A stretch of DNA of 58,301 bases from an uncultured Dehalococcoidia bacterium (GCA_937901475.1 CALGTL010000030.1:1-58301), one strand, 5' to 3'. Counted from the first letter of the stretch, positions 3,592-8,083 are shown. Numbers and translations are program-made. Notes: generated by a model from the letters alone, not told the origin.

Positions 3592-4164
3592 GTGGTGGCG
3601 AAAGACACGCAACGTATAGAGCGGATTATCCGTGACCTGCTTGAGGCGATAGGCGAAAACCCTGACCGTGAAGGACTGTTGGAGACCCCTCGTAGGGTTG
3701 CGAAAATGTATGAAGAGATTAGTGGTGGGACGCACGAAGAGGCAGTAGAGGTACTAGGTACGCAGTTCGACGAGGATCATCAGGAGATGGTCATCATGCG
3801 GGACGTGCCCTTCTACTCCATGTGCGAGCATCATCTTCTACCCTTTTTCGGCACAGCCCACGTTGGTTACCTACCCAAAGGTAAGGTTGTCGGAATAAGC
3901 AAGCTCGCGCGCGCGGTAGACATCCTTGCGCGACGACCCCAGGTCCAAGAGCGACTGACCGGTCAGGTAGCAGATGCCATCAAAGAAGCCCTCGATCCTG
4001 AAGGCGTAGCCGTGGTGATTCGTGCCGAGCACCTCTGCATGGCCATGCGCGGGGTGCGGAAACCGGGTGCTTCCGTCGTCACATCTGCAACGCGTGGCGA
4101 CTTCAGGACTTCCGTAGCTACCCGCAGTGAATTCCTCAGCCTTCTTCAAGAAGGGATACGTTGA
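3592..4164 (+). CDS. folE: GTP cyclohydrolase I
   Basis: 190 aa with the signatures [14 protein letters not shown] and [17 protein letters not shown] lies immediately upstream of tandem GTG codons. Confidence 0.92.
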
Positions 4165-5126
4165 TTGGCAAGCAGGGCGACCCCTTTGCCGCTATAAGTC
4201 CTCTATGGCATGAACTGCTTGAGCGCCGATCTTGGTCTTCCATTTTCCTAACTCCTGAATGGCAAGGTATATGGTGGCGAAGATTCGGTACGGGGAATAA
4301 TGATTTGCGGCTGCTTACTATCGACCGGGAAGGCGCCCTGCTTGGTTTGGCCCCAATGGTTCTTGATGGCGACACGATTAGTTTCGTGGGCGATACAGAC
4401 CTCTTTGATTACCATGACTTTATCGACGTTGCTCCTGGCTTCCATGCCGCGTTCATCGAGCGAGTCGCTGATGAGCCATGGAAGACTATGGATCTGAGGT
4501 CCCTGCCGGCGTTCTCACCGGTGATGCGTGAGTTGCCAGATGCCTACCGAGCCCTCGGTTACAAGGTCACTATCGAGGATGAGGATGTTGTTCCTGGTGT
4601 TGATCTTCCGGCGACTTGGGATGAATTTTTAGGAGTACTGCGGAAGAAAGATCGTCACGAGTTGCGACGCAAGATGCGCCGCCTTGAAGCTGCTGGCCAA
4701 ATTCAGCTGGTGGAGACGACCAAGGGAACGCTGCTCTCCGATTTCCAGATCTTCCTTGAGCTTATGGCAGAGAGCCGTGATGAGAAGCGAGACTTTATGC
4801 TGCCAGAGCGCGAGGAATTCTTCCGCGAAATCATCGAGTGGTCATTCGAGGCTGGGTTTCTTCGATTGCTGTTCCTGGAACTTGAAGGAGAGCGCGTCGC
4901 GACTACGATATCGTTCGACTATGCAGGACGGCGCCTGCTCTATAACAGTGGGTACCGCCTGGAGTATGCGCCCCTTGCAGTCGGTTTGATGCTTAACGCG
5001 CTTTGCATCAAAGATGCTATTGAGCGAGGCCTCATCTACTTCGACTTCCTCCGCGGCCCTGAGCCCTATAAGTATCATCTTGGCGGGCAGAATATCGGCC
5101 TACACCGTATCATCGTCAACCGCTAG
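4161..5126 (+). CDS. GNAT-superfamily acetyltransferase, BioF2-like/CelD-type domain
   Basis: 321 aa. The C-terminal half ([49 protein letters not shown]) resembles CelD/FemAB-like GNAT domains. The TTG start overlaps the folE stop (TTGA). Confidence 0.55.
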
Positions 5127-5137
5127 CAGATCGCCCC

Positions 5138-6388
5138 ATGACTATATCAATAACTCCCTCCCCGATGAAGCGCATCGCCATGGTATCGGTACATGGCTGC
5201 CCAATGGTTACGCCGGGGATGCGCTTTGCTGGCGGGATGAACGTCTACCTTCGTGATATTGCGCCTGCCATCGCTGCTGCAGGCGTTGCTGTTGATGTTT
5301 ACACCCGAAGCCACCATGCTGGAGGCCCAGAGATCTTTGAGATCGGCCCGAATGCTCGAGTTATCCATCTAAGGGCCGGCAACCCAGAATTGGTTAAATC
5401 CGAAGTGATTCCTTACCTCCCCGAATTCCGTGAACGGATGCTGGAGTTCGTCGAGAGGCAAGGATTGGAATATGACCTGGTGCACAGTCATTACTGGCTT
5501 TCAGGTAGCGTTGCGCAATCCATAGCTGCGCAATGGGGACTACCCGTCGTTGTCAGCTTCCATACGCTGGCCGCCATTAAAGAGCGTGAGTCATCTGAAA
5601 GTGAACCTGAGCAACGCAGTGCCGCTGAGGCACAAATGGCGCATGGTGCGGACCTCGTATTCGCTTTCACTGACGACGAGCGTCGCGAACTCAACGAACT
5701 CTTTGGGATCGAAGACGAGCGCATCCACGTCGCCCCCGGTGGTGTGGATCTTTCATTATTCCAACCGATGAGCAAGCTCGAAGCCCGGAAGCGATTGGGC
5801 TTGAGCCCGAATGAAAAAATTGTACTCTTCGTCGGCCGCCCCGAGCCATTCAAAGGCCCCGATGTACTCATACGCGCGCTGCCGCACATGAGGGACACGG
5901 CGAATACTCGCCTAGTTCTGGTTGGTGGATCGGAAGGTGAGCACAGCTTCGACTGGCTGCGCCTTCTCGCCGCAGAGTTGGGTGTCGCTGAGCGAGTCTC
6001 TTGGCACGTAGCAGTTCCTCAAGAACAACTCATCGATTTCTATGCAGCAACCGACATTACTGCTATGCCTTCATTCCACGAGAGCTTCGGTCTTGTCGCG
6101 CTTGAGTCGATGGCCTCAGGTAGGCCCGTGGTCGCCTCGGCAGTCGGCGCATTGGCAACGCAAATCGTCGATGGACAAACTGGGCGCCTAGTAGCCGCTC
6201 ATGACCCGGTAGATTTCGCCTATTGCATGGACGATATCCTAGGAAGCCCTCGGGCACTGCAGTCCGCAGGGGAGAAGGCTGTGATCCATGCTCGGGCGTT
6301 CACTTGGACACGCGCGGCAGAGCAAGCACTGCAAGGCTACCTGCGAGCTGCGCACGGTTTCGTTGAGCGGGCTCAACTTTCGCACTAG
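5138..6388 (+). CDS. GT4 retaining glycosyltransferase, MshA-like (D-inositol-3-phosphate GlcNAc-transferase-like)
   Basis: 416 aa. The N-terminus (IAMVSVHGCP...FAGGMNVYLRDIA...VDVYTRSHH) matches the GGMNVY/VDxYTR pattern of MshA-type GT4 enzymes. A C-terminal EX7E-type region is present (PSFHESFGLVALESMASGRPVV). Confidence 0.7.
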   Translation: MTISITPSPMKRIAMVSVHGCPMVTPGMRFAGGMNVYLRDIAPAIAAAGVAVDVYTRSHHAGGPEIFEIGPNARVIHLRAGNPELVKSEVIPYLPEFRERMLEFVERQGLEYDLVHSHYWLSGSVAQSIAAQWGLPVVVSFHTLAAIKERESSESEPEQRSAAEAQMAHGADLVFAFTDDERRELNELFGIEDERIHVAPGGVDLSLFQPMSKLEARKRLGLSPNEKIVLFVGRPEPFKGPDVLIRALPHMRDTANTRLVLVGGSEGEHSFDWLRLLAAELGVAERVSWHVAVPQEQLIDFYAATDITAMPSFHESFGLVALESMASGRPVVASAVGALATQIVDGQTGRLVAAHDPVDFAYCMDDILGSPRALQSAGEKAVIHARAFTWTRAAEQALQGYLRAAHGFVERAQLSH

Positions 6389-7263
6389 CTGAGAACTCGC
6401 TCGTACCAAACGGAGCGTCGCTCGAGTTGAAACCCCAAGCTTTCGTAAACGTGAATGGCCGACTCATTCTTACTATCGACGGTAATCTCCAGGGGCGTTG
6501 CACCGATGCTGATTAGGTGGTCAATGCCCACAGACGTCACTAATTTACCAAGGCCATTGCCTTGCCACTCCGGGAGCACACCTACCATGTCCACCATCCC
6601 TGGTGAATTGGCGCGCTCCTGATGTGTCCAGCAGTAACCCACGTCGTGGCCATTTATGGTCACGATTACAACCGCGTCAGGTGCGTTCGCGGGTAGTTCG
6701 AATATCCTGTAGTCGAGTTCCTCTTCACGATTGGGTGAGTAGCCCCAGCTTCCGGTGAACGCCGCATTCTGGATAGCTGTAACGGTACCCACGTCAGCGC
6801 GCGTCGCTAGTCGCGTCGCCGTTCCGGCTGGCAACGTAACGCGGGTGGGTTCCGCGCCTGGCCTTATGAGATGTAAATGTACTCGAATGATGGACATCCC
6901 AACGGCTTTGCACACGCTGGATCGCTTCTCGTCGCCTTCGGGCACGTCCATTTGGAGCACGCTAAGCCCTAATCCTTCTGCTTTGGCAGATGCGTCTGTG
7001 ACCAATGCATTGAGCACTGCCTGATTATCAGCTTCGGCGACAAGGACCCCGCGCGACAGAGCTTGCTCAACAATCAAGTACCCGTACCCGACCGTTTCGC
7101 CGCCCACCTCTGCTAGCACGCACTCCTGCTCAGGCGCCAGATTGGACTGCCTCAGCCAGCGGTCGACATCCGCTGTATCTGAGTGCTGGAGTGTGGCAAG
7201 CAGAGAGACATCTGCCCATTCAAATGAGCGGATGATGATATCAGTAGTCGCCAAAAGGGACAC
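6385..7263 (-). CDS. tandem-GNAT acetyltransferase, mycothiol synthase (MshD)-like architecture
   Basis: 292 aa made of two GNAT-like halves. Only the C-terminal half keeps an acetyl-CoA motif (VGVLPEWQGNGLGKLV ... AIHVYESLGFQLERRSVWYE). Its stop overlaps the GT4 stop in a palindromic CTAG. Confidence 0.6.
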   Translation of the reverse strand: MSLLATTDIIIRSFEWADVSLLATLQHSDTADVDRWLRQSNLAPEQECVLAEVGGETVGYGYLIVEQALSRGVLVAEADNQAVLNALVTDASAKAEGLGLSVLQMDVPEGDEKRSSVCKAVGMSIIRVHLHLIRPGAEPTRVTLPAGTATRLATRADVGTVTAIQNAAFTGSWGYSPNREEELDYRIFELPANAPDAVVIVTINGHDVGYCWTHQERANSPGMVDMVGVLPEWQGNGLGKLVTSVGIDHLISIGATPLEITVDSKNESAIHVYESLGFQLERRSVWYERVLS

Positions 7264-7366
7264 TCCTTAGGATGAAATACATGGCCTTGAGACGGGAGAA
7301 GGCTTAGCCGGTATCATCTTATCAATCGATAATTATATACGGCGAGGCTTTCTCGCCGGAGGTTCA

Positions 7367-8083
7367 ATGGAGACAATCGAAACCCCGGAAAGAGCGATGT
7401 TGGTGATACCCCATCCTGATGATGGTGAGTCAGGATGTGGCGGGACCGTCGCCAAATGGGCTCGTGAAGGCTGCAAGGTGCTCTACGTTGTATGCACCAA
7501 CGGTGACAAAGGTTCCTCAGACCCTGATATGACCAGCGAGCGCCTCGCAGCCATCCGTGCTGTTGAGCAGCAGAAGGCCACCGACGTGCTCGGTGTCGAC
7601 GAACTGGTCATGCTTGGTTACGGGGACGGAGAATTGGAAGATACGGGCGTATTCCGCGGTCAGATTGTCGAGCAGATTCGCCGCTTCCGGCCTGATGTAT
7701 TGTTGGCTATGGATCCGCGCCGCATGTCTCACAGCCATCGTGACCACCGCATTTCGGGCCAGACCGCGCTCGATGCATCGTTTCCATTCGCCCGTGATGT
7801 CCTCCATTATCCCGAACATCTTGCTTCTGGCCTCGAAACCCACAAAGTGGGGACAGTGCTCCTATGGGGCTCAGAAAACCCTGACGTTGTTATCGACATC
7901 ACTGAGACCGTAGATCTGAAAATGCACGCGCTGGCAGCGCATGAAAGCCAGCTATCAACCGATATGGCGCGCATCGAGCAATTTGCCAAACGACGCGCGA
8001 CCGATGCCGCTGCAGAAGCTGCAGACCACGGCTATAAATATGAGTACGCCGAGATCTTTAGACGTATCAACTTCCGTAGGTAG
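7367..8083 (+). CDS. PIG-L/LmbE-family N-acetylglucosaminyl deacetylase
   Basis: 238 aa with the motifs MLVIPHPDDGESGCGGT, VVCTNGDKGS and SHSHRDHR, which are typical of LmbE zinc deacetylases. Confidence 0.8.
   Translation: METIETPERAMLVIPHPDDGESGCGGTVAKWAREGCKVLYVVCTNGDKGSSDPDMTSERLAAIRAVEQQKATDVLGVDELVMLGYGDGELEDTGVFRGQIVEQIRRFRPDVLLAMDPRRMSHSHRDHRISGQTALDASFPFARDVLHYPEHLASGLETHKVGTVLLWGSENPDVVIDITETVDLKMHALAAHESQLSTDMARIEQFAKRRATDAAAEAADHGYKYEYAEIFRRINFRR

Follow-up and report, generated by a model that had tools for sequence, protein, structure and literature searches.

The DNA analyzed here was contig C30 of a metagenome-assembled genome (MAG) of an uncultured Dehalococcoidia bacterium (2.31 Mb in 208 contigs, estimated to be 97% complete; GCA_937901475.1 CALGTL010000030.1:1-58301), and its whole length of 58,301 nucleotides is referred to below as the window. 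Its GC content was approximately 55%, and its nearest public relatives were marine MAGs of the Dehalococcoidia/SAR202. A cluster of four genes was studied: AT6, encoding a predicted Fem-type double-GNAT protein of 321 amino acids (aa) (4161..5126, + strand), followed by genes for an MshA-like glycosyltransferase of family GT4 (416 aa; 5138..6388, +), an MshD-like tandem GNAT protein (292 aa; 6385..7263, -), and a zinc deacetylase of the PIG-L/LmbE family (238 aa; 7367..8083, +). An initial annotation, made from the sequence alone, had placed these four genes between positions 4161 and 8083 and had proposed a mycothiol-like thiol or glucosamine (GlcN)-conjugate pathway; the genes were all found as described, and every sequence feature that it named was located in the window. 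It had passed over AT6, mentioned as a CelD-type GNAT, whose association with the GT4 gene proved to be the best conserved and which is the likely ligase. In the interpretation to which we give about even chances, the four genes specify a pathway resembling that of mycothiol, with a Fem-type transferase taking the place of MshC, the cysteine ligase.

Families and folds of the four proteins

The GT4 protein matched the MshA model TIGR03449 with 381.8 bits along profile positions 1-404 of 406, short of the cut-off of 462.5, while the next-best family reached 112.8 bits (cut-off 302.4) and the BshA model 93.9 bits (cut-off 273.7). The best sequence match in the PDB was MshA of C. glutamicum (CgMshA, 3C48; 289 bits), followed at 200.6 bits by the cyanobacterial Tll1590, which we take to be a sucrose-phosphate synthase. 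The N-terminal motifs reported in the initial annotation were present (GGMNVY at residues 32-37 and VDVYTR at 52-57), together with an EX7E motif at 315-323 (E315-E323). Residues N35, K87, Y119, H142, T143 and R160 aligned to N25, K78, Y110, H133, T134 and R154 of CgMshA, which presumably form its inositol-phosphate pocket (their roles reportedly described by Vetting et al. in 2008), and were invariant or nearly so across 30 Chloroflexota GT4 proteins. Ten other Chloroflexota GT4s scored 354-412 bits on the MshA model and no more than 154 bits on any other family; this uniformity makes the score below the cut-off look like phylum-level divergence rather than a different function, and the protein itself looks like an orthologue of MshA. 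Even the MshA proteins of M. tuberculosis and C. glutamicum share only 45.9% identity (PMC2628429). In public-collection gene calls, the GT4 start was placed 9 codons later (407 aa). Separately, in a 1.3-Mb genome of the same order (G159), the order thrC-AT6-GT-GNAT(-) was kept (L132:7758-10682), with a divergent GT4 of 373 aa as the glycosyltransferase, scoring only 126 bits on the MshA model; its acceptor or sugar may differ in this reduced genome.

AT6 was assigned to PF13480 (Acetyltransf_6, 99.1 bits) and annotated as CelD/BcsL. Its AF2 model (pLDDT 93.1) was closest to solved structures of Fem-type enzymes, namely FemX 6SNR (Z 21.3), FemA (Z 20.1), Sbb17/Sba18 bound to the amino sugar streptothrisamine (Z ~20) and FemX_Wv (Z 19.6), with MprF and aminoacyl-phosphatidylglycerol synthases at Z 16-17, while tandem GNATs using acetyl-CoA fitted at Z 14-16 with a root-mean-square deviation (rmsd) of 4.8-6.9. 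The Fem/MprF-type matches amounted to 23 entries (Z 16.2-21.3, rmsd 3.4-4.0 over 256-284 residues), and the top 23 matches were aminoacyl-tRNA-dependent transferases, except for one chain of no assigned function; enzymes that aminoacylate an amino sugar were included. A basic helix between the two domains (residues 162-174) and a Y303-K304 dyad were invariant among AT6 sequences, and the C-terminal domain lacked the Q/RxxGxG/A acetyl-CoA motif. An aromatic-Lys dyad and a basic tRNA-binding helix are described for this enzyme group in a review, with K305 of FemX and F328-K329 of DhpH-C as examples, and the related Orf11 is reported to aminoacylate an amino sugar from Gly-tRNA (PMC12945691); the basic helix and Y303-K304 of AT6 resemble these features. 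Judging from the modeled fold, AT6 is probably an aminoacyl-tRNA-dependent transferase of the FemX-like type. Some AT6 homologues carried PF04339 (FemAB_like) besides PF13480. A search for fusions of AT6 with a tRNA-binding or pathway domain returned one 708-aa protein with PF13480 only, which was uninformative. The labels now in use for these proteins in hundreds of genomes are "cellulose biosynthesis CelD/BcsL" and plain "glycosyltransferase".

In the tandem GNAT protein, Pfam detected a GNAT domain in each half, weak at the N-terminus and clear at the C-terminus. The claim that only the C-terminal half keeps an acetyl-CoA motif held, QGNGLG at 234-239 being the sole one, and the protein thus shows the MshD hallmark of a tandem fold with the acetyl-CoA site confined to the C-terminal domain. 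The MshD model TIGR03448 matched with 63 bits, in the C-terminal half only, and its cut-off of 163.1 was not reached. Structural matching of the AF2 model (pLDDT 95) with VIA-align ranked MAB_4324 first (Z 27.6) and MshD 2C27, in complex with desacetyl-mycothiol, second (Z 24.6, rmsd 2.6, 24% identity). The segment NESAIHVYESLGF at 266-278 contains Tyr273 within the motif NxxAxxxYxxxGF.

The deacetylase belonged to the PIG-L/LmbE family, as had been claimed (PF02585, 105 bits), with the metal-binding motifs HPDD at 16-19 and HRDH at 124-127. Its scores were below all equivalog cut-offs (given in brackets) for MshB (46.9; 224), Mca (59.1; 277), BshB1 (98.9; 182.5) and BshB2 (87.3; 195), and its best solved relative was an archaeal diacetylchitobiose deacetylase (117 bits).

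Conservation of the cluster and distribution of AT6 and MshC-like genes

A scan of species-representative genomes yielded at least 589 stretches encoding a relative of AT6, of which the best 80 loci were examined, all from species-level MAGs of Dehalococcoidia, SAR202 or Chloroflexota. AT6 was directly upstream of the GT4 gene in 80/80 of these loci, and the full order AT6-GT4-GNAT(-)-LmbE recurred in 42/80, so that the clustering of the four genes is not due to chance; the tandem GNAT gene was in the same place and orientation in at least 42 of the 80. On contigs of relatives whose GT4 was 84%, 66% and 52% identical to that of the window, the four-gene order was kept while the flanking genes changed.

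The distribution across the phylum was assessed in 201 Chloroflexota genomes, including three unpublished genomes (G038, G145 and G173) whose omission shifts no count by more than 3. A mycothiol-type pathway had been considered unexpected outside the actinomycetes in the initial annotation, yet an MshA-like GT4 was found in 140 of the 201 genomes; a close LmbE homologue was present in 171 and AT6 in 77. Operons with AT6, GT4 and LmbE occurred in many families, including closed genomes of 1.4-1.9 Mb from the same class, and LmbE was directly 3' of GT4 in many Chloroflexota operons. Given this spread, and good homologues of the tandem GNAT in only 29/201 genomes, the core of the module is AT6-GT4-LmbE. 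The tandem GNAT was accordingly rejected as a core component, though it was conserved within SAR202/Dehalococcoidia lineages, and is a lineage-specific accessory of their module. A literature search within a limited collection found no paper describing this module.

Many Chloroflexota genomes carried a second gene of the CysRS family, and "MshC-like" was used operationally for genomes with at least two CysRS-family matches. None of the sampled Chloroflexota genomes reached the MshC cut-off (485). The MshC-like paralogues were 388-412 aa long, scored 360-410 bits on the MshC model, lacked the C-terminal anticodon domain and occurred alongside a full-length CysRS; the MshC model clearly exceeded the CysRS model in five of the nine paralogues examined, the others being tied or higher on CysRS. 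Such truncated CysRS paralogues were seen in many Chloroflexota families (loci L039-L046, L127, L130 and L131), and in G183 the MshC-like paralogue was in an operon with LmbE and GT4, which links it to this pathway. A second CysRS-family gene was found in none of 20 sampled genomes of the same class as the source genome, several of them closed.

Among the 140 genomes bearing GT4, AT6 alone was present in 52, an MshC-like gene alone in 75, both in nine and neither in four. At the family level (n = 52), 23 families had only AT6, 17 only MshC-like genes, six were mixed and six had neither; in the mixed families f24 and f32, single genomes carried one gene or the other. Three of the nine genomes with both had weak AT6-like matches only, and in one AT6 was frameshifted. 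This pattern is as expected if AT6 and the MshC-like protein do the same job. GT4s from AT6-type and MshC-type genomes had similar MshA scores (354-412 bits) and the pocket residues in common. MshD scores above the cut-off were restricted to 7/201 genomes, all in families of the MshC-like type (the unpublished G038 among them). In a GT4 tree with an unresolved backbone, the ligase type required at least three changes on well-supported branches, and the GT4 of the window was on a long branch. A mycothiol-type pathway probably exists outside the Actinobacteria, to judge from these sequences.

Two cases of co-occurrence were followed individually. The MshC-like gene of G007 was considered as a possible pseudogene and this was rejected, the stop being upstream of its start. 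In G040, which also has an MshC-like paralogue, AT6 (L134:2223-3306) was split into two frames (279 + 73 aa), which may reflect decay after replacement or an assembly error.

Thiol-related genes in the genome and surroundings of the cluster

The source genome contained one CysRS-family gene, a genuine CysRS (TIGR00435, 503.9 bits; 326 bits on the MshC model, cut-off 485), and the reported lack of an MshC-like gene in the window was borne out. A profile search of the 97%-complete genome found no MshC (TIGR03447), and neither BshC (TIGR03998) nor GshB gave a match in it; neither of the cysteine ligases whose genome-wide absence had been named as evidence against a Msh or Bsh pathway was therefore found. 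Glutathione was set aside as an alternative thiol on the absence of GshB, GshA not having been searched for. All four proteins of the cluster also fell short of the cut-off of each Msh/Bsh equivalog model, the other outcome that the initial annotation had named as refuting. In view of these scores and of the missing MshC, BshC and GshB, this genome encodes neither the canonical mycothiol nor the canonical bacillithiol pathway, and both were rejected. The mycothiol-like interpretation of the initial annotation thus failed in its canonical part, while its broader GlcN-conjugate part was upheld by a GT4 nearest to MshA, the pocket residues, Ino1, and a GNAT resembling MshD. The gene for Ino1, which it had proposed to look for, was indeed present, and an MshA-type first step with inositol supply is plausible.

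Genes for thiol-dependent proteins were also searched. Mycothiol-dependent formaldehyde dehydrogenase was absent from the genome (best match 286 bits, cut-off 513). Two proteins scored above the cut-off of TIGR03083, a DinB-type family named mycothiol-dependent maleylpyruvate-isomerase-like (G000:C169:6748-7242 (-) and G000:C197:5371-5859 (-); loci L135 and L136), and among the control genomes C. glutamicum alone did so. In the phylum-wide sample, TIGR03083 matches occurred in 60 genomes, 58 of which also had AT6 or an MshC-like gene; given that 171/201 genomes carry one of these anyway and that anaerobic families had no matches, the phylum-wide support from this family for a thiol product is weak.

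Upstream of AT6 were hom, thrC and folE, the last encoding GTP cyclohydrolase I (3592..4164, +; NF006826, 279.7 bits), which is given for context only. The stop codon of folE overlapped the TTG start of AT6 in the tetranucleotide TTGA at 4161-4164, an overlap implying that the two genes would be translationally coupled; the folE-AT6 order was present in the contigs of two relatives and not in a third. Directly 3' of the LmbE gene was a gene for a 461-aa protein without Pfam or NCBIfam match (8132-9517, +). Similar genes, unannotated, were observed in the contigs of two close relatives and not in that of a more distant one, and the protein was rejected as a pathway member for want of a family match and of conservation in the distant relative. 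A second PIG-L/LmbE deacetylase was encoded at 43847-44584 (-), directly downstream of plsX and fabG (44647-45393 (-) and 45390-46406 (-)), a position that suggests deacetylation of lipid-linked N-acetylglucosamine (GlcNAc). The source genome had five PIG-L paralogues in total.

Proposed pathway and competing explanations

In the pathway that we propose, Ino1, encoded elsewhere in the genome, would supply inositol phosphate, which the MshA-like GT4 would join with UDP-GlcNAc to give GlcNAc-inositol phosphate. A hypothetical phosphatase would remove the phosphate, and LmbE would then remove the acetyl group, turning GlcNAc-inositol into GlcN-inositol. AT6 would use a charged tRNA to attach an amino acid to the free amine of glucosamine, and in the final step the MshD-like tandem GNAT would acetylate the new alpha-amino group with acetyl-CoA. 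This order is the same as that of the mycothiol pathway (PMC2628429). What was observed is the gene content, the conserved gene order, the folds assigned to the proteins, and a distribution in which genomes tend to have either AT6 or an MshC-like gene; from this we infer the catalytic steps, the dependence of AT6 on tRNA and, above all, which amino acid is transferred. Cysteine is proposed solely because AT6 alternates with a CysRS paralogue.

The scheme shares with the actinobacterial mycothiol system (Ino1, MshA, MshA2, MshB, MshC and MshD) an MshA-type GT4 pocket, an LmbE-family deacetylase, a tandem GNAT of MshD fold with a single C-terminal acetyl-CoA motif, and Ino1 in the genome. It differs in having a PF13480 Fem-type double-GNAT in place of MshC, proteins below the equivalog cut-offs and a deacetylase nearer to BshB than to MshB. 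The genes are also clustered here, whereas actinobacterial msh genes are mostly scattered: AT6 and GT4 are adjacent on one strand, LmbE follows in related operons, and the tandem GNAT is on the opposite strand. With bacillithiol synthesis (BshA, BshB and BshC) the cluster has in common the pairing of a GT4 with an LmbE protein that scores best on BshB models; in contrast, the GT4 scored 93.9 bits on BshA against 381.8 on MshA and the genome is without BshC. The MshC-type module of other Chloroflexota families has an MshA-like GT4 (378-412 bits) and LmbE as well, in one case as an operon, with a truncated CysRS paralogue of 388-412 aa instead of AT6. Among Fem-type enzymes, AT6 is most like the streptothricin-type Orf11/Sba18/Sbb17 within FemABX/MprF, in its double-GNAT architecture and Z of ~20, with an inter-domain basic helix and a C-terminal aromatic-Lys dyad that resemble theirs; Orf11-type enzymes aminoacylate an amino-sugar amine from Gly-tRNA, and the acceptor proposed for AT6 is the amine of glucosamine. 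It differs from FemABX/MprF in lacking detectable sequence similarity, in belonging to another Pfam family (PF13480), and in its place within a primary-metabolism-like operon conserved across the phylum, rather than in a peptidoglycan, lipid or antibiotic pathway.

Several observations weigh against the proposed pathway. All four proteins of the cluster are below the equivalog cut-offs. Sequence and profile searches with AT6 gave no match among solved chains and none to FemABX, and of the Pfam families PF13480 alone matched, not FemAB (PF02388) or DUF2156. Members of PF13480 include BspF of Brucella, a protein linked to the crotonylation of proteins, and AT6 might accordingly use an acyl-CoA. 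The structural fit of AT6 to Fem/MprF enzymes is moderate (Z 16-21), with the acetyl-CoA tandem GNATs next (Z 14-16), and the putative equivalence of Y303-K304 to the catalytic dyad of FemX is one of resemblance. The pocket roles assigned to the CgMshA residues are presumptive, LmbE is nearer to BshB and chitobiose deacetylases than to MshB, and many AT6-GT4-LmbE operons are without the tandem GNAT. Complementarity between the two ligase candidates is not absolute, both genes being intact in five genomes (G007, G051, G056, G086 and G181), and, as related genomes are not independent, Fisher P values make the association look stronger than it is. Co-occurrence with Ino1 was rejected as a discriminating test, this gene being present in 180/201 genomes and thus too common to inform.

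The same sequence of reactions could lead to a product other than a thiol, if AT6 transferred Gly, Ala, Ser or another amino acid and the resulting aminoacyl-GlcN-inositol served as a solute, a signal or an envelope precursor. The sequence itself gives no indication of which amino acid is transferred, and the tRNAs used by those Fem-type relatives among the matches that have been characterized carry Gly, Ala, Ser, Leu or Lys; no use of Cys-tRNA is known for any of them. We nevertheless consider this outcome rather unlikely, for AT6 alternates specifically with a CysRS-derived paralogue, AT6-type genomes, including the source genome, encode TIGR03083 proteins that exceed the cut-off, and no other low-molecular-weight thiol pathway was found when MshC, BshC and GshB were looked for. 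It is likewise unlikely that AT6 is an N-acyltransferase acting with acyl-CoA or acyl-ACP, which would give an N-acyl-glucosaminyl glycoside such as the head group of a glycolipid, or a solute bearing an N-acyl group. The combination of glycosyltransferase, deacetylase and N-acyltransferase is a known logic for N-acyl-glucosamine lipids, and AT6 is annotated as a GNAT acetyltransferase, has the crotonylation-linked BspF in its family and the acetyl-CoA tandem GNATs as next structural neighbours at Z 14-16. However, the Q/RxxGxG/A motif is missing from the C-terminal GNAT domain of AT6, the rmsd was 3.4-4.0 to Fem/MprF enzymes against 4.8-6.9 to acetyl-CoA tandem GNATs, matches to membrane-related families were lacking for all four proteins, and both the alternation of AT6 with MshC-like genes and the second GNAT of the cluster, of acetyl-CoA type, would be left unexplained.

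A GT4 acting on another phosphorylated acceptor, for instance in a manner like sucrose-phosphate synthase, would make the product an unrelated GlcN glycoside or the genes only loosely linked. The MshA score below the cut-off, Tll1590 as second-best solved relative (200.6 bits), the chitobiose deacetylases as nearest solved relatives of LmbE and the long branch of the GT4 of this lineage would all be in agreement with it; it is made improbable by the lead of 89 bits that MshA has over the next solved relative, the invariance of the pocket residues across GT4s, the four-gene order strictly kept over GT4 identities of 38-84% while the flanks change, and the linkage of GT4 and LmbE to an MshC-like ligase in other families. 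Finally, a canonical mycothiol or bacillithiol pathway might have been overlooked if its cysteine ligase were missing from the assembly, a MAG of 208 contigs and 97% completeness. This is highly improbable, since neither this genome nor any of the 20 sampled from its class, including several closed ones, yielded a second CysRS-family gene, BshC was absent as well, and AT6-type and MshC-type genomes separate cleanly.

If the pathway with AT6 in place of MshC is accepted, its reach may be wider than the source genome. SAR202, an abundant clade of the ocean, belongs to the Chloroflexota, as does the class Dehalococcoidia with the organohalide-respiring Dehalococcoides; to our knowledge, the protective small thiol of the phylum is not known. 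A glucosamine-inositol conjugate may be that thiol. We tentatively suggest, regarding it as doubtful for now, that much of the Chloroflexota, including SAR202 and small closed Dehalococcoidia, makes its major thiol through Fem-type transfer from Cys-tRNA to GlcN-inositol; that the ATP-dependent MshC was in that case replaced by non-orthologous displacement is an equally tentative proposal. If true, AT6 would be the first Fem-type enzyme in the synthesis of a cofactor and the first known to use Cys-tRNA, and mycothiol-type thiols would occur well outside the Actinobacteria. If AT6 does perform the MshC step, a tRNA-dependent transferase would have displaced a ligase derived from an aminoacyl-tRNA synthetase within the same pathway, and tRNA-dependent amide formation would extend beyond cell walls, lipids and antibiotics to cofactors. 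The compact and conserved gene set, with a clear candidate ligase, would make the question of the Chloroflexota thiol experimentally tractable.

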